A stretch of DNA of 64,000 nucleotides, taken from contig CAWCTA010000025.1 in assembly GCA_963798315.1 (NCBI GenBank), positions 158,007-222,006 on the forward strand. Reading direction: 5' to 3'. This DNA comes from an uncultured Acidobacteriota bacterium (lineage in GTDB: Bacteria > Acidobacteriota > Terriglobia > Terriglobales > Acidobacteriaceae). The notes under the pieces are model-generated. The model was given only the letters and a program-made list of their open reading frames with translations, ran no database searches and was not told the origin of the DNA. How positions within the stretch are numbered: position 1 is the first letter of the stretch; the number at the start of each line of letters is the position of its first letter. A program made the position numbers and the translations under genes. This document shows, piece after piece, positions 4,680 through 52,082 of this stretch.

Positions 4680-4821
4680 GTCCCGGACGCCGCTGGGCCC
4701 AGGCCATGTTTGAGATGCGTGAGGCCGGCGGTGTATCCTCATTCGTTCCGTAAAAGCCGGAAGATGAGGGCGAGGAAGATTTCGCTGAACCTCGGAAACA
4801 TCAACGAGTAAGGGAGTCCGT

Positions 4822-36536: not shown

Positions 36537-39500
36537 TCAATGAAAATTGTGTGACCGGATTTCTATATCCGTGATATCCAGGGGAACGATCCGTTGCGCC
36601 TTGATGTGAATTACGCCATCCTGATGCTGGAGTGGGCCCTCCACGCACACGAATCGGCTGCGCGATACGACCACGCGATTCTGCTCGAAAGCGTCAGGCG
36701 TGAAAATGACGTTGGCGATGCCGGTTTCGTCTTCGAGCGAAAGAAAGACAAAACCCTTGGCAGTTCCGGGGCGCTGCCGCGCAATCACGCACCCGGCCAC
36801 ATGCACGAAGTGATGGTTGGGCAGCCGTGTGAGGTCATCGGCTGACACCAGGCCTGCCTGTCGGAATGCTGCGCGGTGATAGGCAAGAGGATGCGGCCCG
36901 GTGGTGAGGCCCGTGCCGGCGTAATCGGCGCACAGACGTTCATGGGTGGTCATCTTCTTGAGCGGCATGGATGTCTCGGCTGGGGAACCGGAGAGAGCCG
37001 CGCTGCGCAGCAGCGGGCCAACAGGCCGGCCGGCCTGCTCCACTTGCCACAGCGCATCGCGCCTGTGTTCCACATCGCCCAGTGAGTTCAGCGCCCCGAT
37101 GCGGGCTAATGTAACCAGTTCTTTGCGGTTGAGCGCGGGGACGCGCTGCGCAACGTCGTCGACCGATGCGAAGGAACCTTTCTCTAGGCGCGTGGCGACA
37201 ACAGAGTCCGCTGACGATTGGCGCAGACCCTTCGCATAATTCAGGCCGACGCGGAGCGAGAGCGAACCATCGGCTTCATGTTCGAGGGTACACAGCCACT
37301 CCGATCGCTGTACGTCGATAGGCCGTACGCGCAGGCCGTGCCGTTGCGCGTCCTTGATAAGCACCGCCGGCGCATAGAAACCCATGGGCTGATTGTTGAG
37401 CAGTCCGCAAGTGAAGGCGGCAAGGAAGTGCACCTTGAGATACGCCGATGCATACGCGATCAGTGCGAAGCTGGCCGCATGCGACTCAGGAAAGCCGTAC
37501 ATGGCGAATGAGGAGATGCCCTGCACGATGTTGTCCTGCGCCTCCTTGCCAATGCCGTTCAGCGTCATGCCGGAGCGCAGCCGTCCTTCGAGATCCTTCA
37601 TCCGCTGCATGGAACGGCGCATGCCCACGGCGCGGCGAAGCTCTTCGGCCTCCGCGCCGCTGAAGTTGGCGACGACCATGGCCATGCGCAGCAACTGTTC
37701 CTGGAAGAGCGGCACGCCCAGGGTGCGTTCCAGTACCGACTTGAGCGAAGGGTGCGGATAGGTGACTTCTTCCCTGCCCTGCCGCCTGCGCATGTATGGG
37801 TGCATCATTTTGCCCACGATGGGCCCGGGCCGGATGATGGCCACCTGCACCACCAGATCGTAGAAGCGCGTGGGAGCGTTGTGCGGAATCGAAGCCATTT
37901 GCGCGCGGCTCTCCACCTGGAACATGCCCACCGTATCGGCCCTGCAGAGCGTGTCATAGACAAGCTTGTCTTCAGGCAGCGTGGCCAGATCAACGTGTCT
38001 TCTGTAGTGGCGCGGGATCAATTCGATCGCATCTTTGACGGCGGCCAGCATGCCAAGGCCAAGCAGATCGACCTTGATGAGGCCCAGATCGGCGCAGTCT
38101 TCCTTGTCCCACTGGACTACAGTACGACCCGGCATGGAAGCCCGCTCGATCGGCACCACGCGATTCAGCATGCCCGCGCAGATCACCATGCCGCCAGAGT
38201 GCTGGCCGAGATGACGTGGCAGATCCTGCATGCGCATGCATAGATCGAGATAGTGCGCGATGCGCGGGTGGCGGATATCGAAGCCCGCCTGCGCAAAGTG
38301 TTTTTCCATGGTGTCGTTGGCGCCGCGCCACTCCCAGTGGCCGACAAGGCTAGAGAGGCGCGCGATCTGCTCTTCTTCAAAGCCCAGCGCCTTGCCCACT
38401 TCGCGCGCTGTTGAACGGCTGCGATAGCTGATCACGTTGGCGGTCATGGCCGCGCCCAGTGAGCCGTAGCGCTCGTAGACGTATTGGATCACCTGCTCGC
38501 GGTGATCGCCCGATGGCAGGTCAAGATCGATGTCGGGCCACTCGCCGCGGTTCTCACTCAGAAATCGTTCGAAGAGCAACTCCATGCCGACGGGATCGAC
38601 GGCCGTGATTTCGAGCGAGTAGCAGACCGCGGAGTTGGCCGCCGAACCACGGCCCTGCACAAGAAAGCCGTTCCACTGGCAGTAGCGAATAATGTCCCAG
38701 ACGATGAGAAAGTATCCGGCAAAACCAAGTTTTGCAATCAATGCGAGTTCGTGGCGCACCTGGGCGCGGGCCTTGTCGAGCAGGTGGCGTTTGGCAGGCG
38801 AGCCGTAGCGCTTGCGGACGCCTTCTTCCACGCGCTTCGAGAGAAAGCTGTCCAATTCGGTCTCGCCGCCGGGAAGCGGGTAGCGGGGAAATTCATAGCC
38901 CAGGTCGTTGAGCGTGAATTCAATGCGGTCACTGACAATGCGGGTGTTCGCGATGGCCTCGGGCAGATCGCCGAACAGTGCCGACATTTCCTGCCCGCTG
39001 CGCAGAGAACGTGCCGAGTTCGCAGCAAGCAGCCTGCCTGCATGATCGAGAGTAGTCCCGTTGCGGATCGAGGTGAAGACATCGAGAAGCTCTCGATCCG
39101 ATTCGTTTGCGTAGCGCACGCCGTTGGTGGCGATGACCGGCAGTCTGCGCGAAGACGCCAGGCTCAGCAGCGACTGGTTGCGGCACTCTTCTTCGCGCTG
39201 TTGATGGCGTTGAAGTTCGACATAGACATTGGTCTGGCCGTAGATGCAGGCCAGGCGGTCGAGGCATTTCCGTGCTTCATCCTTGCCGTGAGATTGCAGC
39301 GCCGAAGCCAGAGGCCCTTCATCGCCGCCTGTCAGGCAAATGAGACCCGAAGAAAATTCCTCCAGGTCCTCCAATGTTGCTGCGCCTTCTGCCTTTGTCG
39401 TTTCGCGCATCTTGAAGCGCGTGATCAGCTGGCAGAGGTTCTGGTACCCGGCTTGCGTAGCGCAGAGCAGCAGGATGCGCGGAGGCTCGTCTGGATATTG

Positions 39501-39866
39501 ATGCGGCTGCCAGGGGTGCGGTGTGAGCCTGTGTCCGAACGAGGAGACGGCGATCTCCGCGGCAATGTGTGCCTTGATGCCGATGCGCTTGGCCGCGGTG
39601 TGAAAGCGCGCTACACCATAGACGCCGTTGCGGTCGGCAAGCGCCATGGACGGCATGCCGAGTGCGGCGGCGCGTTCGATCAAACCTTCGGGCTGCGAAG
39701 CTCCGTCAAGAAAGCTGAACGCGCTGGCGGCGTGGAGCTCAATATACTCGCTGCCGCTCGCTTTGAAAGCGCTTGGAGCCGCTTGAACAACCGGTGTTCG
39801 CGCATCGTCCGGATGGCAGACCGGCGTTCCCGGCGAGTGCGTGTTGGGCACCGCGAGACTAGTCAT
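36537..39866 (-). CDS. dnaE2: Error-prone DNA polymerase III alpha subunit (DnaE2/ImuC)
   Basis: PHP ELHAASAFSFLDG, QGRGSAANS, PDIDLD, HLGQHSGG, YGFPESHAASF, C-terminal RQRPGTAKG and SHNFH (SRDFH-like) tail. Confidence 0.95.
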   Translation of the reverse strand: MTSLAVPNTHSPGTPVCHPDDARTPVVQAAPSAFKASGSEYIELHAASAFSFLDGASQPEGLIERAAALGMPSMALADRNGVYGVARFHTAAKRIGIKAHIAAEIAVSSFGHRLTPHPWQPHQYPDEPPRILLLCATQAGYQNLCQLITRFKMRETTKAEGAATLEDLEEFSSGLICLTGGDEGPLASALQSHGKDEARKCLDRLACIYGQTNVYVELQRHQQREEECRNQSLLSLASSRRLPVIATNGVRYANESDRELLDVFTSIRNGTTLDHAGRLLAANSARSLRSGQEMSALFGDLPEAIANTRIVSDRIEFTLNDLGYEFPRYPLPGGETELDSFLSKRVEEGVRKRYGSPAKRHLLDKARAQVRHELALIAKLGFAGYFLIVWDIIRYCQWNGFLVQGRGSAANSAVCYSLEITAVDPVGMELLFERFLSENRGEWPDIDLDLPSGDHREQVIQYVYERYGSLGAAMTANVISYRSRSTAREVGKALGFEEEQIARLSSLVGHWEWRGANDTMEKHFAQAGFDIRHPRIAHYLDLCMRMQDLPRHLGQHSGGMVICAGMLNRVVPIERASMPGRTVVQWDKEDCADLGLIKVDLLGLGMLAAVKDAIELIPRHYRRHVDLATLPEDKLVYDTLCRADTVGMFQVESRAQMASIPHNAPTRFYDLVVQVAIIRPGPIVGKMMHPYMRRRQGREEVTYPHPSLKSVLERTLGVPLFQEQLLRMAMVVANFSGAEAEELRRAVGMRRSMQRMKDLEGRLRSGMTLNGIGKEAQDNIVQGISSFAMYGFPESHAASFALIAYASAYLKVHFLAAFTCGLLNNQPMGFYAPAVLIKDAQRHGLRVRPIDVQRSEWLCTLEHEADGSLSLRVGLNYAKGLRQSSADSVVATRLEKGSFASVDDVAQRVPALNRKELVTLARIGALNSLGDVEHRRDALWQVEQAGRPVGPLLRSAALSGSPAETSMPLKKMTTHERLCADYAGTGLTTGPHPLAYHRAAFRQAGLVSADDLTRLPNHHFVHVAGCVIARQRPGTAKGFVFLSLEDETGIANVIFTPDAFEQNRVVVSRSRFVCVEGPLQHQDGVIHIKAQRIVPLDITDIEIRSHNFH

Positions 39867-41359
39867 AGTACGCCTCCAGCCGCCATTCGTGGCGAGCGCG
39901 ATCGTGCCCCAGCAGGCACGCCACGAAGACACCATCGCCGCGCTCGGCTAAAACATCCCATTCCTCGAGATCCCACTCGCCTTCGCACCACCAGCTGCCA
40001 CTGCTTCTCCACGGACCGTAGGCAGCCGTTATGTCGAAGCGGTTCTTCTCATCGCGAAATGCCGCCGGCCTGGCCGCACGCTGCACAACGCGAATCGGCA
40101 TCGATGGACGCACCCGCCGCAGAGCCATGCGGCGGCCATCCGGCTCCCTCTCCGATGCCCCGGCGCCGATCGCAAATGCCTCCATGCGAAAGCTCCCGCC
40201 GCGATGGCTGTCTTCAAGAACAGGCGAGCCCACGCGGTCATCGCCGACGAGAGCCCGCAACCTCGCCAGGGTTACATCGAGCCGCGACGGTTCTGGCATT
40301 TGCGGGGCAAACAGGCCGAGTTGCACGGTGCCCGATCGCCCCGCCTCAGCCGTCAATTCGAGAGAGACGATGGCGGCCTGCGGCGGGTGCGCGGCTATCT
40401 CCAGTTGCAGAAGCTTGAGGAGAAATTTGCGATCGGTGGAAGGAACAGCAGGCCGAAGTACGCACTGGTGTGTCAGTCCTCTTTCCAGCTGCATCTTCGC
40501 GGTGAGTATCGAAAGCGAGAGTGCCCGATCGCCTGCGCGGGCAACGAGGCAATCGATCATGCGAGCGCCCATGAACAGCAGAGAGTCGATCTGCTCTACA
40601 GGCGTTTCGAATTCACAAAATTCGCGCAGCGCGAATGCAGCCTCGATGGGTTGAAACGTGTGTGAATGCGCGCCCCGGGCCAATGCGCGCCATGCTTGCG
40701 CATCCGAGCCAAGCCGCGTGATGAGTTCGACCTCGGGCAACGCGGCTAATTCGCCCAGGGTACGAATGCCCCACAGCGCAAAAGTGTCAGCGGGTTCCTC
40801 CTCAAGATCGAGTGAGGCAATGGGCTGTTTTGCGAGTGCTGAAGCTTCTTCACCCTCAGCGATCATGGCCACTCCGTGGGTCACGGCAGCTTTCATCCGC
40901 GCGGCATCGTAGTTGGCGCTCACCGCAATCGACACCCGGAAGCCGGCGTCAGCCAATGCAGAGCGCATTCGCCCGGCTAACTGCGCGGGGGGACCAAACA
41001 GGCGCTCCGTGCCGCTGATGTCGAGCACGAATGCGCGATGCGGTTCCACGGCTTGCTTCTTCAATCCGCGGAGAAAACCGCGCCACGCATTCGAGCAGCA
41101 CAGAGCGAGCCGCTGCTTCCGTTTCGAGCGAGCGCGCCAGAAGCCGGACTCCCCCCATGCCTTCCACATCCAGCCGTGCCATGCCGAGCGACGCGCCATT
41201 CTGCAGCGCGGGACGATTCATGGCACATACAAACTCCTGTGGCGGCCGGCCCTCGATGACCGCCACTGGTGCGCTTCGCAAATCAGGGCGCAGCCGCAGC
41301 AAGGCCTGCGCCGGAAACTCCGCCGCATGCACACAGGCGTAAAGAGCATTCACGCTCAT
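39859..41359 (-). pseudogene. imuB: ImuB Y-family polymerase-like protein, frameshifted as sequenced by one extra base near 41037
   Basis: ORFs 40949-41398 (YACVHAAEFPAQ...FSPRIEE) and 39859-41199 (AFVLDISGTERLFG...WDLEEWDV...WRLEAYYD) join as GTA-CAFVLD if base 41037 is removed (1500 nt). ATGA overlap with imuA. Confidence 0.88.
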
Positions 41360-42147
41360 GCGCGCTTCTCCATATCCCACGGGCTGTTGGCGGACCATGT
41401 AGATGCAGGTTGTTTGCGAGGACCTGGCGAAATCGGCGTAAAGCGCTGTCGACCACGCTGCAGGCTGAACGTAAAGCCGCGCAGCACAGTGCCGCCTGCC
41501 GTTTCGGCTTCAAGCGGAGCGCACTCGAGAGCGATCGCTGCGCTCGACTGGGCATAGGCAGCCTGTCCGAGCACCACGAGACTGCAGCGGGTGCGATCAG
41601 AAGCCTGTCGAAAACGGAACCATGTGGCAAGCGGAATTCGATTGCCGTGCTCCAGCGCGGTATCGCCCAGGTCGAGCACAATGGCAGCGAAGCCGGCGGC
41701 CTGGAGCAGTAGATCGGTGGCGCGCAGCGCCTGATCCAGCTTCGTCCATGGTTTCCCCTTTTCCGATCGCGGAGCCCGAGCGGCACGAGGTTGGGGTTGC
41801 GACCGATCCTGGCATCGCACCCAGAGCAGTTGACGGAGGTCGACGCCGTTGGCCGCGGCCGATTCCGGATCGAAAGCATCATTCGTATCTACCCAGGCGC
41901 AGACGCGGGCTTCGGCCGTTCGCCGGGCGAGAAAGGACAGGGCAAGGCTGGTACGTCCCGACGATGCGGGGCCCGTTATCTCGCTGATCGCTCCCACCGG
42001 AATGCCGCCATCCAACTGTTGGTCGGCCTCCTCAATGCCCGTCGGCGCGACCTCGCGGTGAGCGCAGGGCGCAGGCGTCAGCGCAGACGGAAAGCGGCTG
42101 GCGAGGGCGTGTTCGATCTGGAGGCGAAGGGCTGCAGCGGCAGGCAT
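41356..42147 (-). CDS. imuA: ImuA / RecA-like protein of the mutagenesis cassette
   Basis: GGIPVGAISEITGPASSGRTS Walker-A-like motif, WVDTNDAFDP, IVLDLG; first gene of the cassette. Confidence 0.85.
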   Translation of the reverse strand: MPAAAALRLQIEHALASRFPSALTPAPCAHREVAPTGIEEADQQLDGGIPVGAISEITGPASSGRTSLALSFLARRTAEARVCAWVDTNDAFDPESAAANGVDLRQLLWVRCQDRSQPQPRAARAPRSEKGKPWTKLDQALRATDLLLQAAGFAAIVLDLGDTALEHGNRIPLATWFRFRQASDRTRCSLVVLGQAAYAQSSAAIALECAPLEAETAGGTVLRGFTFSLQRGRQRFTPISPGPRKQPASTWSANSPWDMEKRA

Positions 42148-42300: not shown

Positions 42301-44244
42301 CTACTTGTGGACTGACTCGCGCTGATTTGCGACGAAATCGGCAATCGCCACGACCTGTTCGTCCGGCAAGTACTCGTGGCCCACCATATCAGTTCCTTTC
42401 AAACCGAATTTGGTGATGCGGGCAATGTCCTTGCGGAGTTCCGCCAGGATCTCACCCCCCGCGACGTGCTGCATTGGACCGCGCACCAGATCCGGCGGAA
42501 CGCTGTGAAAACTCGCCCGCCACTTTCCACGGGCAGCACCGTCGGACGCGTGACAGGTGGCGCAGTGTTCGGCGAAAAGCATGTGGCCGTCGATTGACCG
42601 GGCCTGCGTAATCGCGCGATCCGAAGGCTGCCAGTCGGCGACTGTACGCCAGTGCCCGGCGGAGTTGAGGCTCGTGAGGTAGGCAATCAGGTCGTCCCCG
42701 CGCCCGTCGCGAAACAGGTAATCGTAGCGAGGCATGATGGAGTCGTAGCTTACGTCGCGCGGATTCATGAAATGGATGCGCAGCCATAACGGCGAGCGGC
42801 GAGCGCCCACCTGGCTCAGATCCGGGCCCTGGCGCCGGTTGCCGATCAATGGCGGCTGTTCGCGGCGAATCTCCTCGAGGCCGGTGACTGGGCCCCACAT
42901 CGGCACGTCGGCCGTATTCGGCCGTACGTATTGCGAATGGCAGTTGATGCAGCCTTCGGCGATGTACACCTGCCTGCCGCGTTCGACCGGGGTCAGCACC
43001 ATGGAATTGGCAAAGGAAAGGCCGTCCGGACGAACGATAAGAGTGAGAGCAAAAGCGATTCCCATCACCATCGCGATGACCAGCGCCTGGATCCGGGTCG
43101 ATTTGTCGAGTCGCCCGGCAGTGATCGCGTTCCAAAGCCAGGGCACAGCGAAGAGCGCCGCGGCTGCAATAACAAAAGCGATGGGAACATGATGCAGGTT
43201 GCGGCCCATGCCGATGCCGAGTGCGGAGCCGGTCCAGCCGGCCAGCGCATAGAGGTATCCTGCCGCCCGGGCGCGTTCACCGTGCGATGCGGCAGGCATG
43301 AGGAAAGATGGATAAGCCACAAGCGCAACCGAATAGAGCGACACTCCGATGGGATACAGAACGGCTGCAACGGGGACCCGCACAGGGTCGAGAAGCAACA
43401 GGCATGCTGCGCCGAGGGCCCCAATTGCCAGCGCAAGCGTCAGGGACACACCACGGCGCGCGAGCAGCCATGCGCTTACGAGCGCAGCGGCGAGATGCAG
43501 CGTGCCGGCACGCCATAAATGGAGATCGCCCTGCCATGTTCCGGCTTTGAGCCAGGGAGAATTCTGGATGATGTAGAAGGCGGCAGAATCCAGCCATACC
43601 AGCACAGTGAACCACACGAGTACCAGCGCGAACCTTACCGACTTGCGCTGCATTGGCTCGGCTGGCAGCGGCTGCAGGGAGTCAACGCGGCTGCGATTGG
43701 CAACGATCAGGGCGACAAGGCAGCACGCGGCGGACGTCAATGCAATCCGTTGTGGGCTCGCCGTAAACAGCGGCGGAAAATTGCAGAGGAAATATCCAAT
43801 GCCGGTGCCGATGCCGACTTTGAGAAGCGGCCGATCGATCCCGATCCACAGGGGAAGATTGGCAACCAGGGTTACTGTGAGCAGGCCCAGAGAAACACCG
43901 ATCGTCAAAGCGACCGTGGCGGCGGTGAAGACATTGAGCGGCAACAGCGACCACACTGTGGTGAGTGCGCAACCGATAAGGCCGGTCTGGAGCCGGCAGC
44001 TCGGACAGGTCCACAGGCGACAGCGCGGAGCGAACAGGCTCATGCCGACTCCGCCGATGGCCATCGCGCCCATGATCAGGGGAAGCGAATTCTCCGTGAT
44101 GCCAAGCTCGGCCAGGCGCTTGAGAAATCCGAATTGCGCAAAGATGAGGAAGTAAACATAGGTACTGGCGACGAGGAGAACGCCTTGCCAGCCTTCGAAG
44201 ATGGGTGGAGCATCAGCACCCCGCGGGCGCGATTCAGCCTGCAC
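42301..44244 (-). CDS. Fusion protein: MFS-like multi-TM domain + cbb3 subunit II (CcoO/FixO)-like cytochrome c + second cytochrome c domain
   Basis: About 12 TM helices, then GRQVYIAEGCINCHSQYVRP...GNRRQGPDL...HFMNPR...SIMPRY, then CATCH...MVGH. GTG 44244 overlaps the upstream stop (ORF track start 44418). Confidence 0.8.
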   Translation of the reverse strand: MQAESRPRGADAPPIFEGWQGVLLVASTYVYFLIFAQFGFLKRLAELGITENSLPLIMGAMAIGGVGMSLFAPRCRLWTCPSCRLQTGLIGCALTTVWSLLPLNVFTAATVALTIGVSLGLLTVTLVANLPLWIGIDRPLLKVGIGTGIGYFLCNFPPLFTASPQRIALTSAACCLVALIVANRSRVDSLQPLPAEPMQRKSVRFALVLVWFTVLVWLDSAAFYIIQNSPWLKAGTWQGDLHLWRAGTLHLAAALVSAWLLARRGVSLTLALAIGALGAACLLLLDPVRVPVAAVLYPIGVSLYSVALVAYPSFLMPAASHGERARAAGYLYALAGWTGSALGIGMGRNLHHVPIAFVIAAAALFAVPWLWNAITAGRLDKSTRIQALVIAMVMGIAFALTLIVRPDGLSFANSMVLTPVERGRQVYIAEGCINCHSQYVRPNTADVPMWGPVTGLEEIRREQPPLIGNRRQGPDLSQVGARRSPLWLRIHFMNPRDVSYDSIMPRYDYLFRDGRGDDLIAYLTSLNSAGHWRTVADWQPSDRAITQARSIDGHMLFAEHCATCHASDGAARGKWRASFHSVPPDLVRGPMQHVAGGEILAELRKDIARITKFGLKGTDMVGHEYLPDEQVVAIADFVANQRESVHK

Positions 44245-44653
44245 GTTCGAGCCATCCTTTGCGCAGGCCGATCCACTGAATCGCCGCGAATGAGCCATCG
44301 GAAAACGCAACGCTGATCCAACGGATCTCCAGGGCTGACGATGCGATTTGACCCACAACGAAAACCGCCACGAGGGTGCGCACCAGCGCGGTGATCTTCC
44401 ATTGTGTCGACCATCCAATGTGGGCGTGCGTCGTCAGAGGCCAGCGCGCCACGGCCCAGAAATAGGTAAGGCCTACGGACAAGACGAATACGCCGATGTA
44501 GCGAACGAACACTAGCGGCTGGGGGATGATGGTGAGGCCCATGAACCGCAGCGTCCATGCGGGTGCGCCGATCAGCAGCAGGCCGGTGCCGGTGTCGCAC
44601 AGTCCGGCGATGTATTGGTAGAGGATGAGCCAGCGGCGAGGCGGGGCGTTCAT
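44234..44653 (-). CDS. Small four-TM membrane protein
   Basis: 139 aa with four hydrophobic segments; ATG overlaps the upstream stop (ATGA) and its own stop overlaps the next start. Confidence 0.75.
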   Translation of the reverse strand: MNAPPRRWLILYQYIAGLCDTGTGLLLIGAPAWTLRFMGLTIIPQPLVFVRYIGVFVLSVGLTYFWAVARWPLTTHAHIGWSTQWKITALVRTLVAVFVVGQIASSALEIRWISVAFSDGSFAAIQWIGLRKGWLERAG

Positions 44654-46125
44654 AGTCGCTCGCCCTCCGGATGACCAAGGCTGACGCGATCAAGGTCTGA
44701 GGTTTCCCACCCTTTCCGCAGAAACAAGCGGAAAGGATGGGGCACGGCGGTCTGTGGCGCTGACAGCATGCGGCGGGTGAGACGAATGAACCAATGCGCC
44801 GATGCCGCGGTCATGGCAATTCCCAGCACCAGGCGCACCACGTAAATAAGATTGCGAGCGGGGCCGGGAACAATCGTAAAGGCGGGATCGCCTCCCTCCT
44901 TCCAGCCAGTAAAGAAAAACAGGATCACATACGCCAGTGTCGCGCCGTGCCAGGCAAAAAATGGCCAGCGAGCGCTAAAGATAGCTCCGTCTTCGTCAAG
45001 CAGGACAGACAGGATGAGAATCAGCAGGCTGCTGACGAAACCTGCCATCGCCAGGATGGAATGGCCCACGAGGCCGTCGGTGAATTTGAGGCGGTCGAGG
45101 ATACCGGGGAGAAAAAACGCCCAGCCCGTAGGAACGAGCAGGGCCCAATACCCAAGCACGGCCATCCGCCACAAGCGTGTTCTTGCGGGCCACGCAAAGG
45201 CGGTGAAATACGCAGGCACAAGCGGCACCCAGATCAGCAGGCTGCCCAGGCTGATGAACTGCACGGGAAGGTGGTGGCTCACGTCTGCGCGGCCCAGGGC
45301 GAGGCAAAGCAGGGCTTCGACGGCTAAGACGACCCAGGCGGCGACGATCCAGTGACGGCCGGTGGTTTTGCGATGAGTAAGGCCATAGGGCAACAGGAAG
45401 AGGATGAGGACGATAACGAGCGTGGATTCGAGCTGGCTCGCTCCCGTGGGGCCGCCGGTATCGGGATTGATTGCAGGATATGTGGCCGGATCCGATGCAA
45501 GGTAAATGGCCATGGGAACGAGCAAAAGCAGCGCGAGGCCAAGCAGTTTGGCAGCGCGGATGAGGGTCGATCGATTTTCAGGCTCGTGCCAGGCATGCTT
45601 GTACGCGGCGGCGAGCACCACCCACAGGAAAAGGATCGCCAGCGGAAAAAGAACGCGGGCGTAGCCGGTCCAGTCGAGGAAGAGCTTGCCGCTGGAGTTG
45701 CCGTTGAGCCAGGAGACTGCGCCGATGGTAAGAGCCAGCGACCATAGAATGAGAGCCGCCGGCGACCAGGCGGCGATGGCCCCGCGGTCAGCACGATAGA
45801 TGCGGATCGCCCACGCCACGAGCGGCAGCGCCATCCATCCGTAGAGTTGGAAATTGAGATGCACTGGAGTCCAGCGGCCGTAGCTCCACTCGCCAAGCCA
45901 GCGACCCGCGGCCGGATAGAGCAACAGGATGGCGAGCCAGACTCCGGTCAGGTTCGCGACCACGAGCCACGCCAGGCTGTGCCATGCGGCGACGGCGAGA
46001 ACTGAGTGCGTTTCCGAACGCGACCCGGCGGAAGTCTCGACTGCAACAGGTTGGAACGCGACGTGCAAGGGTAGATATGCGACCGCTGTCAGTCCGGCGC
46101 CGGACTCACTCGCAGATTTTGCCAT
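44650..46125 (-). CDS. Degenerate cbb3-type oxidase subunit I (CcoN/FixN)-like membrane protein
   Basis: YGRWTPVHLN (cf. FGRLRPLHTN), SSGKLFLDW (cf. SSKEYAELEW), SHHL (cf. PHHL), FTDGLVGHSI (cf. YTDWTIGHVH); about 12 TM helices. Confidence 0.75.
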   Translation of the reverse strand: MAKSASESGAGLTAVAYLPLHVAFQPVAVETSAGSRSETHSVLAVAAWHSLAWLVVANLTGVWLAILLLYPAAGRWLGEWSYGRWTPVHLNFQLYGWMALPLVAWAIRIYRADRGAIAAWSPAALILWSLALTIGAVSWLNGNSSGKLFLDWTGYARVLFPLAILFLWVVLAAAYKHAWHEPENRSTLIRAAKLLGLALLLLVPMAIYLASDPATYPAINPDTGGPTGASQLESTLVIVLILFLLPYGLTHRKTTGRHWIVAAWVVLAVEALLCLALGRADVSHHLPVQFISLGSLLIWVPLVPAYFTAFAWPARTRLWRMAVLGYWALLVPTGWAFFLPGILDRLKFTDGLVGHSILAMAGFVSSLLILILSVLLDEDGAIFSARWPFFAWHGATLAYVILFFFTGWKEGGDPAFTIVPGPARNLIYVVRLVLGIAMTAASAHWFIRLTRRMLSAPQTAVPHPFRLFLRKGWETSDLDRVSLGHPEGERL

Positions 46126-46816
46126 CGCGCATCTCCACCAGGCGGTCGCAGCGTTGCGCCAGCCCGCGGTCGTGGGTTGCCATCACCAGGGTGATGCCTT
46201 CGGTGGCGGCCAGTTCCAGCAGCAGGTCGAAAATCTGGCGGCTGGTGCGCTCATCGAGTGAACCGGTGGGCTCGTCGGCCAGCAGGATTCCCGGCTTGTT
46301 CATCAGCGCCCTGCACAACGCGGTGCGCTGACGTTCGCCACCCGACAGCTTTTGGATGCGCTGTTTGAGGCGATGGGTAAGCCCGGTGCGTTCGGCGAGG
46401 ATGTGCAGGCGCGCCAGCGCCTCTTTGCGCGGAGTGCCGGCGGCTACGGTCGGAATGAGGCAGTTTTCTTCAAGCGTCAGGTCGGCGATGAGATTGTGCA
46501 GTTGGAACACGAACCCCACCTCATGGCGGAGGTACTGCGTGCGGCGGCGTTTCTTGAGGTCCGTGCCGTGGATCAACACGCGCCCGCGCGTCGGCTCATC
46601 CAGGCCGCCGACGAGGTGGAGCAAGGTGCTTTTGCCGCAGCCGGAGGGGCCACAGATCGCTACCGTCTGGCGGGAAAACACTTCCAGGTCAACCCCGTTC
46701 AGGACGGGGATGGAACCGTCTTCGTAGCTCTTCCACACATCCTCGGCGCACAGCAGCGCCGGCCCCGATTTCGAGGCGGGTGTGGATTGCCGATCGACGG
46801 CGGTTTGGCTATTCAA
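46106..46816 (-). CDS. ABC transporter ATP-binding protein (LolD/MacB type)
   Basis: GPSGCGKSTLL, GFVFQ, LSGGERQR, LADEPTGSLD, MATHD; probable TTG start 46816 overlaps the permease stop. Confidence 0.93.
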   Translation of the reverse strand: MNSQTAVDRQSTPASKSGPALLCAEDVWKSYEDGSIPVLNGVDLEVFSRQTVAICGPSGCGKSTLLHLVGGLDEPTRGRVLIHGTDLKKRRRTQYLRHEVGFVFQLHNLIADLTLEENCLIPTVAAGTPRKEALARLHILAERTGLTHRLKQRIQKLSGGERQRTALCRALMNKPGILLADEPTGSLDERTSRQIFDLLLELAATEGITLVMATHDRGLAQRCDRLVEMRDGKICE

Positions 46817-47921
46817 AGCGCAGCGCCTCCACCGCGCGAACCCGCATGGCATAGAAGGCGGGATAAAGCGCCCCCGCAGCGCCTGTGAAGCAAGCCAGCA
46901 GCACCACTGCCATCACCACCACTGGCTGGACCTCGGCATCGACGTATCCGTGGAGCGCTGGAATGAGCTTGAGAGCGAGAATGGCGCACGTCCCGATCCC
47001 CAGGCCAAGCACCGCCCCCGCGAAGGAGACAGCGCCCGACTCGCCGAAAATGAGCGTGGCAATTTGAGTGTTGGAGAATCCGTTGACGCGGAGAATCGCG
47101 ATTTCGCGAATACGCGTAAACACCGACATGATCATGGTGTTCGCCACGCCCAGTCCGCCCAGGAGCACGCCACAGGCGCCGACCGCCCAGGCCGTCGCTT
47201 TGAGAATCTTGAACTGCGAGTAAGAACGGTTGAACTCCTCGTCTTCGAGCGCGATCAGGCTGGGAAATTGCTGCTTAACCTGCGCCTTGAACGCGGCCTG
47301 GTCGCTGCGGTTCTTCAGTTTCACAAGCAGAACCGAGGACGTGCCATTCTTGTGAAAGAACGACTGTGCGCTCGGAAGGGGCATGAACACGCCGCCGTCT
47401 TCGAAGCCATTCCTGGTGCGGAGAATGCCCATTACCTGGAAGGTTCCGTGACCGATGGCCACCTGGCTGCCCAAGGAGGCATGCAGGAATTCGGCGGCGC
47501 GCTCGCCGAGAGCAATCGCATCCGGGTTGGCGCCGAAGGTGTCTTTGCTTCCGGAAATCCACGTAGCTTCACGGATGCGCGCGTCGTCGCCGGTTACTCC
47601 AAAGCAGGTGATGATGGGATGGTCCTGGCTGGAGACGATGCCGAAGAGAACCGGGTTGGCCTTCTCGACCAGGCTCCAGCCCTGGATTTGCTTCACCGAA
47701 GCGTCCGGCACGCTGCTGAAGAAGAGGTCGGAGATATTGCGCTCGAAGACGATGAGTTGGCTGTCGGCGGAGAGAAGCCCGGCGAACATGCCGACCGCAC
47801 CCTGCAGGATCGTCACCACGGTCAGCATGGCGGCGACACTGAAGGCGATCCCAGCGATGCTGATGAGGGTGCGAACGCGATGGCGGCCGAGATTGGTGAG
47901 AATCAAGCGGAAAAAAATCAT
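46809..47921 (-). CDS. ABC transporter permease (MacB/FtsX/LolE type)
   Basis: N-terminal TM (RTLISIAGIAFSVAA), large periplasmic domain, NTMIMSVFTRIREIAILRVNG, three C-terminal TMs ending YPA...EALRFE. Confidence 0.92.
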   Translation of the reverse strand: MIFFRLILTNLGRHRVRTLISIAGIAFSVAAMLTVVTILQGAVGMFAGLLSADSQLIVFERNISDLFFSSVPDASVKQIQGWSLVEKANPVLFGIVSSQDHPIITCFGVTGDDARIREATWISGSKDTFGANPDAIALGERAAEFLHASLGSQVAIGHGTFQVMGILRTRNGFEDGGVFMPLPSAQSFFHKNGTSSVLLVKLKNRSDQAAFKAQVKQQFPSLIALEDEEFNRSYSQFKILKATAWAVGACGVLLGGLGVANTMIMSVFTRIREIAILRVNGFSNTQIATLIFGESGAVSFAGAVLGLGIGTCAILALKLIPALHGYVDAEVQPVVVMAVVLLACFTGAAGALYPAFYAMRVRAVEALRFE

Positions 47922-48859
47922 GATGCCCGAGTAAGACTGGCCTCGGAAAGATTCGCGATCTCCTTATTGAATTGGACCCGAACATCGCGGAGGAACGCAA
48001 GTCGCGGACGGCGGTGCACCAGACGCGCAATCACCTGGCTACCCAGGTTCATCAGCCGTTCGATGCGGTCGAAAGACTCGGGTACGCCGATGGTGAGCGC
48101 CAGGTTGGGCCGGTCCAGGCAGGCATCACGGGCAGCGGTTTTGCCGTGGACATGGTCGCCATGCAGCACGTCCTTGAGGTCGTCGAGTGTCTGGTAGCTC
48201 AGGCCCCAGAAGGTAGCCAGGCGATCGAGCAGGTTGGCCTCATAGGGCCGGGCTTGACCAATGATTGCGGGAAGAACCAGCGCCAGGCGGATCAGTGAAA
48301 CCGTTTTGCCCATGGCGATGGACTGGGGTTCACGCAGATGCTCTGAAAGGCATCCGTAATGGAGGTCCTGGCTTTGCCCATTGAGAAGCCCGGCGAGCCC
48401 CAGGTGGCGCTCGAGGTAGCCGAGCCCCGCCGATTGAACCTCCGGTGGCAGTCCTGCTACCGACTTCCAGACCAGCGCATAGGCCCTGTTGATCAGCGCC
48501 AGTGCGGCCAGGATAGCCGCTCCCTCGCCGTACACCTGGTGGGCACAAGGCACGCCGCGGCGCAGCTGGGCGTCGTCCATCGAGGGCAGGTCATCAAAAA
48601 GCAGGGATGCAGTATGAAAGTATTCGATGGCAATGGCCAGGTTTTCAGAACGATCTTCGGATAGCCCGAACAAGCAGGCGATACGATACGCCAGTTCAGC
48701 GCGAACCATGCTGCCGGGGTGCTGCAGCGTGTCCCGCAGGGCTCCACCAAGATGAGGCTCGGTTCCCTGGGGCAACGGCAGTCTTGCCTGAAAGGCGCGC
48801 CGGAGGCGGGACCTCATCAAAGCGTGGTTTGCGGTTGAATCCATTCCTTTCGCTCCCAT
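47918..48859 (-). CDS. Polyprenyl (FPP/GGPP-type) diphosphate synthase
   Basis: FARM HTASLLFDDLPSMDDAQLRRG, GQSQDL, GKT, SARM YQTLDDLKD. Confidence 0.92.
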   Translation of the reverse strand: MGAKGMDSTANHALMRSRLRRAFQARLPLPQGTEPHLGGALRDTLQHPGSMVRAELAYRIACLFGLSEDRSENLAIAIEYFHTASLLFDDLPSMDDAQLRRGVPCAHQVYGEGAAILAALALINRAYALVWKSVAGLPPEVQSAGLGYLERHLGLAGLLNGQSQDLHYGCLSEHLREPQSIAMGKTVSLIRLALVLPAIIGQARPYEANLLDRLATFWGLSYQTLDDLKDVLHGDHVHGKTAARDACLDRPNLALTIGVPESFDRIERLMNLGSQVIARLVHRRPRLAFLRDVRVQFNKEIANLSEASLTRAS

Positions 48860-48974: not shown

Positions 48975-49268
48975 TACTTCCATTAGATCATGGAGTTAGG
49001 AGATAAAATGACGCCGTGATGAAACCTGCCGCGCTGTCCGTCCTATAGGACCGGTAGTGGAGATTCGAGGGTCGGCGGGCAGAGAAAGAGACTCGTAAAC
49101 CTTGAGTCGGATCAGCGGAAATGACGATCTCTTCATTCTCGGCCGAGTGCATTGACGCGCGCCATCCCCAACCGTCAGATTAGTAGGCGAGCCCCAAAAT
49201 TAAATTCTCGCCCGGGCGTTGGATCAAGCCTTGGAGGCGGCGTGAATTTCGAACGTGTCAGGAGACTC

Positions 49269-49880
49269 ATGAGTGGCTTATTTGTAAGTGTGATTTCGAA
49301 ATCCGGACCCTTGAAGCTTGGCCGCTCTTTGCTGGCCGCTGTGGCCGGTTTTGCGTTGACTGTCACAGCTCAGAGCCAACAGCATTATCGTGTCGATCCG
49401 GGGACCAGCGCTGTGCACTTCACGCTCGGAGCATCGGACCACCCCGTGGAGGGAACATTCCATGTCACTTCAGGTGACTTCACCCTCGATCCACAGAGCG
49501 GTGCGATGACAGGAACGGTGTCGGTCGACGCTTCCAGCGGACAAAGCGGGAACGAGGGCCGCGACAAAAAAATGACGAAGGATCAGTTGAAGGTGCAGAC
49601 TTTTCCGACCATCACTTTCGCGCCGGCCAGGTTCTCGGGGCAGTTGAAAGACTCCGGCGATTCGAGCGGACCGGTAGAGGGCGCGTTTACACTGCTGGGA
49701 CAGGCCCATCCGATCACCGTTCCCATGAACGTGCATATGGAGGGCGATCACTTCGCCGCTTCCGGCAGTTTTTCAGTGCCGTTCGTGAGTTGGGGCGTGA
49801 AGGATCCGAGCTTCATGTTCATGAAAGTGGACAAGGAAGTGAAAATCGACCTGAAACTAACCGGCACGGTGACCAAATGA
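49269..49880 (+). CDS. YceI family (polyisoprenoid/lipid-binding) periplasmic protein
   Basis: Signal peptide; YRVDPGTSAVHF, GTFHVTSG, SGNEGRDKKM, FPTITF, GAFTLLG, VPFVSWGVKDP; AGGAG RBS before ATG 49269. Confidence 0.88.
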   Translation: MSGLFVSVISKSGPLKLGRSLLAAVAGFALTVTAQSQQHYRVDPGTSAVHFTLGASDHPVEGTFHVTSGDFTLDPQSGAMTGTVSVDASSGQSGNEGRDKKMTKDQLKVQTFPTITFAPARFSGQLKDSGDSSGPVEGAFTLLGQAHPITVPMNVHMEGDHFAASGSFSVPFVSWGVKDPSFMFMKVDKEVKIDLKLTGTVTK

Positions 49881-49936: not shown

Positions 49937-50614
49937 ATGCGCCTTTTGGTAATCGAAGACGACGTCGCGAACCAGAACTTCCTTGAACGTTCGTTAACCC
50001 AAAACGGTTTCCAGGTGGATATCGCGCCCAACGGAAAGACGGCGGAGAGGATGGCGCTGGCAGGCAGTCATTCGGCCATCATCCTCGACCTTGGCCTTCC
50101 CGACGATGACGGGCTTTCCTTGATTACCCGGCTGAAACAGCAGGGCATCCGCTCCCCAGTCTTGATCTTGTCTGCGCGCCGCTCGCTCGATGACCGGGTG
50201 CGAGGACTGGAAATCGGCGGGGACGATTACCTGACCAAGCCCTATGCCCTTCCCGAATTGCTCGCCCGTTTGCGCAATCTATTGCGCCGGAATGCTCCCC
50301 CCGCCGACAGCACGACCGTCTTGCGAGTCCTGGATCTCCAGCTTGACCTGTTGCGGCGGGAGGCCATCCGGGGAGACGAGGTTCTTCAACTTACCACCCA
50401 GGAATTCTCTTTACTGGAGTATCTTTGCCGCAACGCGGGTCGTATCGTGAGCCGATCCATGATCCTCGACCAGGTGTGGGGCATGCGTATTGAACCGGAC
50501 ACGAACGTCGTGGATGTGCATATTTATCGTCTTAGGGGTAAAGTTGATAAACCGGGTGGACCCCCCATGATCCGCACCATCCGTGGAGTCGGCTATGTAC
50601 TCCGAGATAAATAG
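49937..50614 (+). CDS. OmpR-family response regulator (CusR/CzcR-like)
   Basis: LVIEDD, ILDLGLP, GGDDYLTKPY, EFSLLEYL, DTNVVDVHIYRLRGKVD, IRTIRGVGY. Confidence 0.93.
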   Translation: MRLLVIEDDVANQNFLERSLTQNGFQVDIAPNGKTAERMALAGSHSAIILDLGLPDDDGLSLITRLKQQGIRSPVLILSARRSLDDRVRGLEIGGDDYLTKPYALPELLARLRNLLRRNAPPADSTTVLRVLDLQLDLLRREAIRGDEVLQLTTQEFSLLEYLCRNAGRIVSRSMILDQVWGMRIEPDTNVVDVHIYRLRGKVDKPGGPPMIRTIRGVGYVLRDK

Positions 50615-52082
50615 CTCCAAAGGACACACCGCGGCCTGGCGCATCTCGTTCTGGAGCACGCTGGCGTTCGCCGTGGGTTCACTGATTCTTTTCCTGTTTC
50701 TGCAGCGTTTCGCATCCCACGAAATTCAGCGCCGGACAGACGCCTGGCTCATGGGCGAGGTAGAGACCCTGGCTGACGTGGCCGAACGAACACCAAAAAA
50801 TGCCCTGTATGACCGGATTGTGGACGAAGTAGCGGAACTGGCTACGAAAGAGGTTCCGCTCGAATTACAGGCGGGAGGCCAACCCGACCAGCAGGCCGTT
50901 TTCTTTATCGAAACAGGAAGCGATAATCGCCTGAAGCTCTGGGGTGGCGGCAAGCAGGACAGCACCCCCTTCCTGACCGCAATTTCGCGAAGTCCGATTA
51001 CCCCTGGCAAGCCCATGGACATTTCGGTCCCGGGCTATTTTCATCCCTTTCGCGTGGTAAGCAGACTAACCCCGTCGGGAGACCGTATCCACCTTGGACT
51101 CTCGAAGGCGCAGGACATCCATGTTCTTCTCCGCATGCGTGTTCGGTTGTTTTCGATTTGCCTGGCCATCGTGGTGCTCGGCTTTGTCATCGTTTTCTTC
51201 GCCACCAAGCGGATGTTGGATCGCGTCCATCGCATTACCAGGACTGCCAATCGCATTGGCCAATACGATCTGCGCAGCCGAGTGCCGGAGGTTCGAGGCA
51301 CGGATGAGATTGCCCAGCTCGCCCGCACGCTCAACAAGATGCTGGATCGAATTGAGAATTCAGTCAATCAGTTGCACACCATCACCAACTCGCTTGCCCA
51401 CGACCTGCGCAGTCCGATGATGGCCATCCGCGGCAAGCTCGAACTGGCCCTGCTGGCCGAACATGAGAGCGCCGGAAGCGATCCCATTGCCTCGGCTCTC
51501 GAGGAACTGGATCGTCTCTCTGACTTCCTTACTAAATCGCTGGACGTGGCGGAGGCCAATGCCGATGCTCTGCGCATCCGCAGGGTGCCGGTAAATCTGG
51601 ATGAATCGCTGCGCTCCATGGTGGACCTGTACGAGCCCAGCTTTACCGACAAAGGCCTCAAGGTCCTGATCAGAAGCTCGTCTCCCGTTATTGTGTCAGC
51701 CGATTCCGCGCTCCTGCACCGCTTGCTGGCCAACCTGTTGGACAACGCCCTCAAGCATCTCGCCTCCGGAACGACAATCTACATCCAACTGCAGGCCCTG
51801 GCCCCGTCAGGGCATCTGGAGATCGAAGACGATGGACCGGGCTTTCCTCCCGAAGTGATCGAACATCCGTTCGAGAGATATGTGAAGGGGAAAGAATCGA
51901 CTGGAAGCGGTCTCGGGCTGGCCTTTGTTGAGGCGGTGGTGCGCGCCCATGGCGGACAGATCCGGGCTTCGAACGGCCCGCGTGGAGGAGCGCAGATCGT
52001 GATCGATCTGCCTCTCGCGGGACGCGCTCTTACCGACGAATCGTCATTCGAGCAATCGCACATGCCCGTCTCCCGGAATTGA
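50595..52082 (+). CDS. Sensor histidine kinase (2 TM, HAMP, HisKA, HATPase)
   Basis: DEIAQLARTLNKML, H-box LAHDLRSP, NLLDNALKH, EDDGPG, GSGLGL; overlaps the regulator stop. Confidence 0.92.
   Translation: MYSEINSSKGHTAAWRISFWSTLAFAVGSLILFLFLQRFASHEIQRRTDAWLMGEVETLADVAERTPKNALYDRIVDEVAELATKEVPLELQAGGQPDQQAVFFIETGSDNRLKLWGGGKQDSTPFLTAISRSPITPGKPMDISVPGYFHPFRVVSRLTPSGDRIHLGLSKAQDIHVLLRMRVRLFSICLAIVVLGFVIVFFATKRMLDRVHRITRTANRIGQYDLRSRVPEVRGTDEIAQLARTLNKMLDRIENSVNQLHTITNSLAHDLRSPMMAIRGKLELALLAEHESAGSDPIASALEELDRLSDFLTKSLDVAEANADALRIRRVPVNLDESLRSMVDLYEPSFTDKGLKVLIRSSSPVIVSADSALLHRLLANLLDNALKHLASGTTIYIQLQALAPSGHLEIEDDGPGFPPEVIEHPFERYVKGKESTGSGLGLAFVEAVVRAHGGQIRASNGPRGGAQIVIDLPLAGRALTDESSFEQSHMPVSRN

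Follow-up and report, generated by a model that had tools for sequence, protein, structure and literature searches.

The gene at 42301..44244 on the minus strand of a 64,000-nucleotide stretch of DNA from an uncultured Acidobacteriota bacterium of the Acidobacteriaceae (contig CAWCTA010000025.1; the whole stretch is referred to below as the window) encodes, in one open frame of 647 amino acids (aa), a major facilitator superfamily (MFS) domain, a thirteenth transmembrane (TM) helix, a CcoO domain and a cytochrome c domain. The protein, a single polypeptide of the inner membrane, is an MFS domain joined to a complete CcoO and an extra cytochrome c, not a CcoO with added helices, and it is presumably a standard subunit of an uncharacterised, copper-site-less, cbb3-descended complex in soil Acidobacteria. 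We read the operon that ends with this gene as encoding a cbb3-derived non-oxidase redox module that handles an isoprenoid or quinone-type lipid, and give this reading as a whole a probability of about one half; the structural claims within it are near certain, and the lipid role stands at roughly one in three. The parts of the gene are:

42301..44244, minus strand: whole fusion gene (open frame; public 647-aa call P0001; GTG start with AAGGA Shine-Dalgarno sequence)
43120..44190, minus strand: MFS-fold domain, aa 19-375, with 12 TM helices (6+6) and both termini predicted to be cytoplasmic (AlphaFold2 model, Foldseek, counts of lysine plus arginine)
43996..44022, minus strand: CRLWTCPSC cysteine cluster in the cytoplasmic TM2-TM3 loop (alignments; not a conserved feature)
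43033..43104, minus strand: TM13, aa 381-404, the CcoO anchor, predicted to run from cytoplasm to periplasm (AlphaFold2 helix; basic AGRLD loop before it; variable sequence)
42610..42990, minus strand: CcoO/FixO-type monohaem c domain, aa 419-545 (PF02433; PDB CcoO chains)
42304..42609, minus strand: class I cytochrome c domain, aa 546-647 (PF00034, E 1.8e-11; PF13442, E 8e-9)

A longer frame of this open reading frame (ORF) extends to 44418; public calls of the same sequence begin at 44244, among them an identical 647-aa gene call (P0001). The GTG start codon at that position has an AAGGA Shine-Dalgarno sequence 10 nt upstream, and the start overlaps the stop of the preceding ORF. All Pfam matches of the protein (FixO, Cytochrom_C and Cytochrome_CBB3) fall within its C-terminal ~250 aa, and the first ~400 aa match no Pfam model. 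The FixO match (PF02433; E 8e-28, 97.8 bits against a cut-off of 29.6) covers profile positions 30-143 of 219 only, and the matches in NCBIfam are limited to partial ones with cbb3 subunit II models; a sequence search of the PDB finds the CcoO chains 8smr_F and 3mk7_B at E ~1e-20. The first haem site consists of CINCH (aa 432-436, at 42937-42951) and Met504 (42733-42735), and the second of CATCH (aa 561-565, at 42550-42564) and Met620 (42385-42387). Residue conservation was computed over 129 diverse representatives of the family with a threshold of at least 90%, which CINCH, Met504, CATCH and Met620 all reach; in the cytochrome c domain these residues are C561, C564, H565 and M620, and the CcoO/FixO domain holds 36 residues at this level. 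An earlier reading of the window made from its letters alone (the sequence-only reading) had named both a CcoO-type CINCH haem with its Met ligand and a second, CATCH haem with a later Met, and both are borne out by this conservation. All the marks of a CcoO/FixO protein are found: a PF02433 match above the gathering score, a CXXCH motif with a distal Met, and a single anchor helix, TM13. Since helix 13 is the normal anchor of CcoO, the CcoO present is a complete one.

The N-terminal part has the fold of an MFS transporter. An AlphaFold2 model of the fusion protein, built on 36 homologues, has a mean predicted local distance difference test score (pLDDT) of 78, mostly 80-96 in the membrane part, and arranges the chain as six helices, a loop of 20 residues (185-204), six more helices, and a 13th at 381-404 before the haem domains. 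The sequence-only reading had counted about 12 TM helices, which is right for the domain and one short for the protein, whose 13th helix is the CcoO anchor. When the N-terminal ~380 aa are compared with the PDB by Foldseek, the best 50 matches are all MFS transporters (NorA, SfMCT, VMAT, SV2A, OxlT, G6PT and LacY), and there is no oxidase among these 50; 370-480 columns are aligned at a probability of 1.0, with target template-modelling scores of 0.6-0.7 for the closest. An MFS-like N-terminal domain had been set as a test beforehand, and it is what the comparison returned. The predicted cytoplasmic loops of the MFS domain contain 10 lysine plus arginine residues and the periplasmic loops none; together with the helix order of the model, this gives a coherent predicted topology, in which the MFS domain would begin and end in the cytoplasm and helix 13 would lead the chain to the periplasm, the side on which haems of the c type are attached. 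Seven of nine family members match Pfam MFS_1 (PF07690) at E <= 1, the best at 1.6e-8, and a profile of the MFS domain finds zero matches when searched against the PDB. Most members carry a GxxLDRR loop resembling motif A between TM8 and TM9, where the window has Ala at the Asp position.

Those MFS residues that are conserved in at least 90% of the 129 representatives all lie in TM1, 4, 5, 7, 8, 10 or 11, helices that we take, from the general MFS scheme, to line the central cavity. TM3, 6, 9 and 12, which are presumably peripheral, have no residue at this level, and neither does TM13. The universal polar residues are Y151, N155, D219, S220, Q227, W237, H250, Y297, S302, Y304, S305, W337 and S340; Asp219 and His250 are invariant, and His242 is nearly so among close relatives. 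The domain is under functional constraint, and the pattern of conservation favours a ligand-binding or transporting cavity over a passive scaffold. The CRLWTCPSC loop cluster to which the sequence-only reading drew attention is present at 43996-44022. Its Cys positions vary outside close relatives in the alignments, and because it is conserved only among these it is not regarded as functional.

The fusion is widespread among its relatives. A word-indexed search with the fusion protein finds, at E <= 0.001, 1888 homologues. Of the best 120 among these, which are those listed, nearly all are 620-700 aa long and have the same three haem-domain Pfam matches. Relatives of the MFS part were scanned for in one genome per species, giving 415 stretches; counts out of 80, here and below, refer to the best 80 loci from named genomes. 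A single open frame runs from the MFS part to the end of the cytochrome c in 74 of the 77 loci that hold both parts, isolates included. Two of the remaining three have a frame change between the MFS and CcoO parts (L042 and L072), and one is cut by a contig end. Hundreds of genomes carry the fusion, and the architecture was rightly called unusual in the sequence-only reading; among the listed matches of a literature search on Acidobacteria, cbb3, CcoO and the major facilitator, none dealt with such a fusion.

As to its origin, when 1.84 billion cluster representatives are searched exhaustively with HMMER for the MFS part by itself, only 495 clusters match, so the MFS family is small and specific. 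Most of these clusters are fusions of ~610-660 aa, and many of the matches at 34-40% identity are just 355-390 aa long. In all five distant contigs inspected, the stand-alone MFS gene (355-390 aa) abuts or overlaps a downstream gene; in four of them this gene encodes 257-329 aa and bears FixO and cytochrome c domains, and in the fifth it is cut by a contig end. Directly upstream of the MFS gene there is a ~135-143-aa gene in 5/5 contigs, and the four that reach further upstream encode there a ~416-462-aa protein with at best a weak COX1 match. Since stand-alone MFS genes abut genes for CcoO and cytochrome c, the acidobacterial protein is a fusion of two neighbours that are always found together, and arose by the joining of adjacent genes that are still separate in distant relatives. 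A single ORF of 1130 aa (P0300) combines CcoN-like, MFS, CcoO and cytochrome c parts. In a tree of the MFS domain there is one coherent stand-alone clade (support 0.83), along with numerous short sequences scattered elsewhere, probably the result of truncated gene calls; given these, the count of 20 changes between fused and split forms on the tree has little meaning and was set aside. One metagenome protein of 1016 aa (P0311) carries a Lactamase_B_2 domain, of the metallo-beta-lactamase fold, at aa 770-969, after the MFS-CcoO-cytochrome c unit. This domain may hint at the kind of chemistry that the system carries out.

Two further membrane proteins are encoded next to the fusion:

44650..46125, minus strand: CcoN-fold protein of 491 aa without the CuB histidines, the presumed partner (Foldseek, hhalign)
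44234..44653, minus strand: 139-aa protein, probably with 4 TM helices, between the CcoN-like and MFS genes (hydropathy scan, in which about three peaks are resolved; 80/80 loci)

The 139-aa protein has zero matches in Pfam or NCBIfam. The 491-aa protein matches no Pfam model (COX1 included), no NCBIfam model (TIGR00780 included) and no PDB sequence, with single-sequence and profile searches of the PDB alike finding nothing. Its structural and profile link to CcoN comes solely from Foldseek and a weak hhalign match. The model of the protein (pLDDT 82, predicted template-modelling score 0.82) finds the CcoN chains of 3mk7, 9g6b and 8smr, and NorB, with query template-modelling scores of ~0.6 and E values down to 8e-8; the alignment of its profile with that of canonical acidobacterial CcoN is weak (E 4.6e-4) and collinear over 433 columns. 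We take the ligands of CcoN, as in 3mk7, to be a TM2 and a TM10 His for haem b, a TM10 His for haem b3, and one TM6 and two TM7 His for CuB. At the corresponding places the 491-aa protein has the following:

TM2 haem histidine of CcoN: kept, as H89
First histidine of the TM10 HxH pair: kept, as H355
TM6 GHN motif of CcoN: ASQ
TM7 HH pair of CcoN: R-A-D-V
Second TM10 histidine of CcoN: Ile or Leu

Throughout the CcoN-like family, H89 and H355 are the only ligand histidines that are universally conserved, where subunit I of the cbb3-type C-family reductases has six. Because all three CuB histidines are lost, it is near certain, to judge from the sequences, that the complex is not an O2 or NO reductase. 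The distant split-type relatives of the CcoN-like protein retain GHN, one TM7 His and HxH, so that the family records a stepwise loss of the binuclear centre. Conserved polar loops of the protein (YGRW, SGKLFLDW, YPxxNPDxGGPTG and LDRLKFTD) are all periplasmic by the helix order of the model, and are where the CcoO domain would dock. The CcoN-like gene is adjacent to the fusion in 79/80 loci, with overlapping start and stop codons in the window, and the CcoN-like, small 4-TM and fusion proteins would form one cbb3-derived complex.

The 3' end of the CcoN-like gene (44650-44800, aa ~440-490) encodes a tail, PQTAVPHPFRLFLRKGWETSDLDRV, that matches many short dispersed stretches in related genomes. 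These matches often hold internal stop codons, and most homologues have either no such tail or another one. In some strains, it would seem, a copy of a short dispersed repeat has come to form the 3' end of the gene and is translated with it.

Comparison with the canonical subunits shows what has been kept and what is new. Like CcoO (FixO), the fusion protein has one anchor helix and then, in the periplasm, a monohaem c domain whose haem site is made up of CXXCH and a distal Met, and its gene lies just downstream of a CcoN-fold gene, with the small 4-TM gene alone between them. Unlike CcoO, it begins with a 12-TM MFS domain and ends with an additional cytochrome c domain, and, unlike that of canonical CcoO, its CcoN-like partner has no CuB site. 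Canonical CcoP is the dihaem subunit III, with two CXXCH domains on a membrane anchor of its own. The C-terminal domain of the fusion resembles it in matching Cytochrome_CBB3 (PF13442) and would take the position of CcoP in electron transfer, where electrons enter before they reach the CcoO haem. Unlike CcoP, this domain has one haem (CATCH), is joined to CcoO and lacks a separate anchor, and its match to TIGR00782 is negligible (E 0.004). The CcoNO fusions (NCBIfam NF011053) likewise have twelve helices followed by a CcoO unit in one polypeptide; there the helices have the fold of oxidase subunit I, whereas here they have the MFS fold and the relative of subunit I is a separate protein.

A form of this module has already appeared in the literature under another name. 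Trojan et al. reported that transcripts of the 'cbb3' ccoN of Terriglobus roseus were low, beyond reliable quantification by reverse-transcription quantitative PCR at 10 to 0.001 uM O2 (PMC8407424). The only FixO-domain gene in the T. roseus genome is that of this module, and no gene in this genome matches a ccoN model. As this leaves no other candidate of either kind there, the published 'cbb3' is almost certainly the module described here. The T. roseus CcoN-like sequence has the same ligand losses as the 491-aa protein.

In the window, six minus-strand genes overlap at every junction, in the order prenyl-diphosphate synthase, MacB/LolCE-like permease, LolD-like ATPase, CcoN-like protein, 139-aa protein and fusion protein, with the synthase first and the fusion last. 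The other genes of the neighbourhood, including those for synthesis and export and a divergent group on the opposite strand, are:

47918..48859, minus strand: short-chain prenyl-diphosphate synthase, of farnesyl or geranylgeranyl diphosphate (FPP/GGPP) type (Pfam polyprenyl_synt)
46809..47921, minus strand: MacB/LolCE-like permease (MacB_PCD and FtsX)
46106..46852, minus strand: LolD-like ATP-binding cassette (ABC) ATPase (Pfam ABC_tran; NCBIfam LolD at 220 bits, below cut-off)
49152..49880, plus strand: YceI-family lipocalin, divergent in the window (Pfam YceI, E 1.9e-24)
49937-50614, plus strand: OmpR-family response regulator (family match)
50583-52082, plus strand: HAMP histidine kinase (family match)

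The best NCBIfam models for the synthase are FPP synthase and CrtE, both below cut-off. The 80 loci contain, with or near the MFS domain:

Small 139-aa protein: 80/80 loci
CcoN-like protein: 79/80 loci
MacB/LolCE-like permease: 79/80 loci
LolD-like ATPase: 79/80 loci
CcoO part: 77/80 loci
Cytochrome c part: 77/80 loci
Prenyl-diphosphate synthase: 76/80 loci
YceI: 71/80 loci, directly after the fusion gene and on the same strand in 52
Response regulator: 57/80 loci
Histidine kinase: 52/80 loci

The same gene order is found in 8/8 relatives identified through the CcoN-like protein, one of which, from another family of the phylum, has no ABC pair. Prenyl synthase and YceI genes also occur in distant split-type loci, and in two contigs of that type the regulator and kinase genes come immediately after the CcoO gene. 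A UbiA-type prenyltransferase was considered as a core member and rejected, as it is found in one distant locus only. In the split-type metagenome contig L120, a UbiA/MenA-type prenyltransferase gene with an NDLFD motif lies at 3921-5400 beside yceI, divergent from the prenyl synthase and CcoN-like genes.

The link to lipids comes from this company, that is, from the synthase in 76/80, YceI in 71/80 and the LolCDE-like pair in 79/80 loci. In the mechanism that we propose, electrons would pass between the cytochrome c pool of the periplasm, the two c haems and the haem b of the CcoN-like subunit, with the extra cytochrome c domain standing in the position of CcoP. On the membrane side the electrons would be exchanged with an isoprenoid lipid, probably of quinone type, whose prenyl chain would be made by the FPP/GGPP-type synthase that the operon itself encodes. 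Flipping of this lipid, or its presentation at the leaflet facing the periplasm, would fall to the MFS domain, and its transfer to the YceI lipocalin to the LolCDE-like ABC pair, so that the whole module would be an inducible envelope redox or antioxidant system analogous to BcnA/LcoA. Substrate flipping by the MFS domain, one of the roles suggested in the sequence-only reading, is plausible, and gene context makes isoprenoid lipids the candidate class of substrate. That the CcoN-like protein carries haem, that the proteins assemble, what the lipid is and in which direction the electrons move, we only infer. It is doubtful whether the module goes as far as a redox-linked lipid shuttle, in which electron transfer through the haems would be coupled to the movement of an isoprenoid quinone-type lipid to YceI; such coupling could be mechanical or chemical, and an MFS transporter would then have been recruited as a fixed subunit of an oxidase-derived complex.

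The analogy with BcnA/LcoA is one of genetic context only. Naguib et al. (2022) found that a YceI lipocalin (BcnA) and a linked cytochrome b561 (LcoA) limit lipid peroxidation in Burkholderia, and ubiquinone-8 is discussed there as a YceI ligand that the cytochrome might re-reduce (PMC9113575). In both cases a YceI lipocalin is genetically tied to a membrane haem protein, with a proposed role that involves a prenyl-quinone ligand and redox protection of the envelope, and BcnA/LcoA is the closest functional precedent for such a tie. The haem protein of that system is a 4-helix b561, not a relative of oxidases, and an MFS domain, c-type haems, a prenyl synthase and an ABC extractor are all absent from the Burkholderia system. 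A literature search found no paper that joins YceI, cbb3 and polyprenyl in Acidobacteria.

Several observations weigh against a lipid-handling redox module. The window's own MFS domain scores below Pfam MFS_1, the canonical motif A (GxxxDRxGRR) of the N-terminal half is degenerate and not conserved, and the assignment of helices to the cavity follows the general MFS scheme and not the coordinates of the model. No Lys or Arg is conserved in the membrane region of the MFS domain, which leaves one Asp and one His as the charged or ionisable residues of the cavity. A cavity without conserved Arg or Lys argues against a diphosphate head group, and this one would suit a neutral amphipathic head such as that of a quinone or quinol. 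The two-component system is closest to the heavy-metal (CusRS/CopRS) and HprR families, so that metals rather than lipids are possible. Finally, no prenyltransferase or cyclase is conserved in the cluster, and the prenyl diphosphate could serve prenylation of the haem O/A type.

Two alternatives survive better than the rest, and both are unlikely. The complex might be a respiratory enzyme for another acceptor, or an energy-conserving quinol:cytochrome c oxidoreductase, whose MFS domain moves the substrate or product. The ligands that the split-type relatives retain (TM6 GHN, one TM7 His and the TM10 HxH) mean that the ancestor may have had a small-molecule active site, and according to Murali et al. 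(2024, PMC11214002) quinol oxidation evolved more than once, indeed several times, within the superfamily. However, those histidines are gone in the Acidobacteriaceae form, and the patchy spread of the module suits an accessory over a core role. Within the window's own genus it is present in about 12 of 36 genomes, and a sample drawn across the phylum has it in 2 of 301; among 24 genomes of a neighbouring family, none has it. Standing about level with this is the possibility that the MFS domain is a non-transporting scaffold or assembly anchor for the CcoO-cytochrome c part. The degenerate N-terminal motif A, the few charged residues left in the cavity and the sub-threshold MFS_1 score of the window's sequence are all in keeping with a scaffold, and non-transporting partners with the MFS fold exist, such as UNC93B1, which is present among the fold matches. 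Docking would lead one to expect the opposite of the conservation described above, which sits in the cavity helices and is absent at the 90% level from the lipid-facing TM3, 6, 9 and 12, and most members also retain the GxxLDRR loop.

Somewhat less probable again is a metal redox-transport system, in which the c haems reduce or oxidise Cu or Fe, the MFS domain moves the ions, and regulation is of the metal type. The families nearest to the regulator and kinase are CusR/CopR and CusS, and the cavity offers invariant Asp219 and His250 together with His242, near-invariant in close relatives. A metal site made of one Asp and one His would be thin, however, and the match of the kinase to the heavy-metal model is confined to the HAMP region and kinase core (residues 168-476), the sensor domain remaining unmatched. 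Transport of metals would also leave the near-universal prenyl synthase, YceI and LolCDE-like genes unexplained, and gives no need for a 12-TM CcoN-like haem protein.

It is improbable that the operon encodes a working high-affinity cbb3 reductase in which the fused MFS domain is a CcoA-like copper importer feeding CuB, although JGI labels the neighbours 'cbb3 subunit I/II', the adjoining two-component system is most like heavy-metal sensors, and CcoA is an MFS protein required for cbb3 biogenesis (PMC3266609). The fusion shares with CcoA (CalT) the MFS fold and a tie to cbb3-type proteins. Unlike CcoA, it is never a free-standing importer gene, being a subunit-like partner, and its own partner has no copper site, lacking the three CuB histidines and the second TM10 histidine. 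The motifs published for CcoA are MxxxM in TM7 and HxxxM in TM8 (PMC6362234). Here TM7 reads WLDSAAFxIIQ and TM8 HLWxxGxLHLAAA, neither of which contains Met, and no CcoA-specific transporter model in NCBIfam or Pfam matches the fusion protein. In T. roseus the module, as the sole 'cbb3' there, is not induced at low O2, and the match of the kinase to the heavy-metal model, as said, spares the sensor domain. Copper delivery of the CcoA type, which the sequence-only reading had entertained, is therefore not supported. As for the weakest alternative, an assembly or indel artefact joining two genes, the two frame changes (L042, L072) and the truly split forms known from distant lineages count for little beside the open frame in the window, the fact that 74 of 77 independent genomes, some of them isolates, have it as a single ORF, and the coherent topology, and an artefact is excluded for practical purposes.

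The best 80 loci are from Acidobacteriaceae, and include Terracidiphilus, Edaphobacter modestus DSM 18101, Acidipila rosea DSM 103428, Terriglobus roseus DSM 18391 and Granulicella. Three loci labelled Verrucomicrobiota or Lichenicola (Acetobacteraceae), L056, L086 and L119, have ~55-57% identity to the MFS domain of the window and are no more distant from it than most Acidobacteriaceae loci; mis-binning or recent transfer could account for this. Directly downstream of the fusion gene in the window, at 36537-42147 on the minus strand, is a cassette of imuA-like (RecA fold), imuB (Y-family polymerase-like) and dnaE2 genes. It is not part of the conserved set, imuA being within 9 kb of the fusion gene in 6/80 loci. 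A second FixO-positive ORF of the same genome (L007, contig C10, 8487-10415) was examined as a paralogue and rejected, as it encodes an unrelated multihaem cytochrome c, of 642 aa and with several CcoO-like 'GPDL…W' repeats; it is followed by a monohaem cytochrome c and then a 400-aa protein without a family match. Elsewhere in this genome (contig C20, 55962-57291), adjacent ORFs of 322 and 315 aa (L004 and L005) match the C- and N-terminal halves of COX1, and may together represent subunit I of an A-type oxidase that is frameshifted or split.

Surveys of soil Acidobacteria that count this module as a high-affinity cbb3 oxidase, and infer a microaerobic lifestyle from it, have mislabelled it. 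Reading it as a copper-less non-oxidase resolves the puzzle of the T. roseus 'cbb3', whose expression could not be quantified at micro- to nanomolar O2. The family shows an oxidase scaffold that sheds its metal ligands stepwise, with some kept in the distant split forms and two in the fused Acidobacteriaceae forms, while gaining a transporter subunit. Cultured carriers are at hand in T. roseus DSM 18391, E. modestus DSM 18101 and A. rosea DSM 103428, and the genes that so constantly accompany it, for a prenyl synthase, a lipid extractor and a YceI lipocalin, point to a concrete and testable class of substrate. If true, a redox-linked lipid shuttle would be of a kind not described before, an oxidase scaffold put to use without oxygen chemistry.

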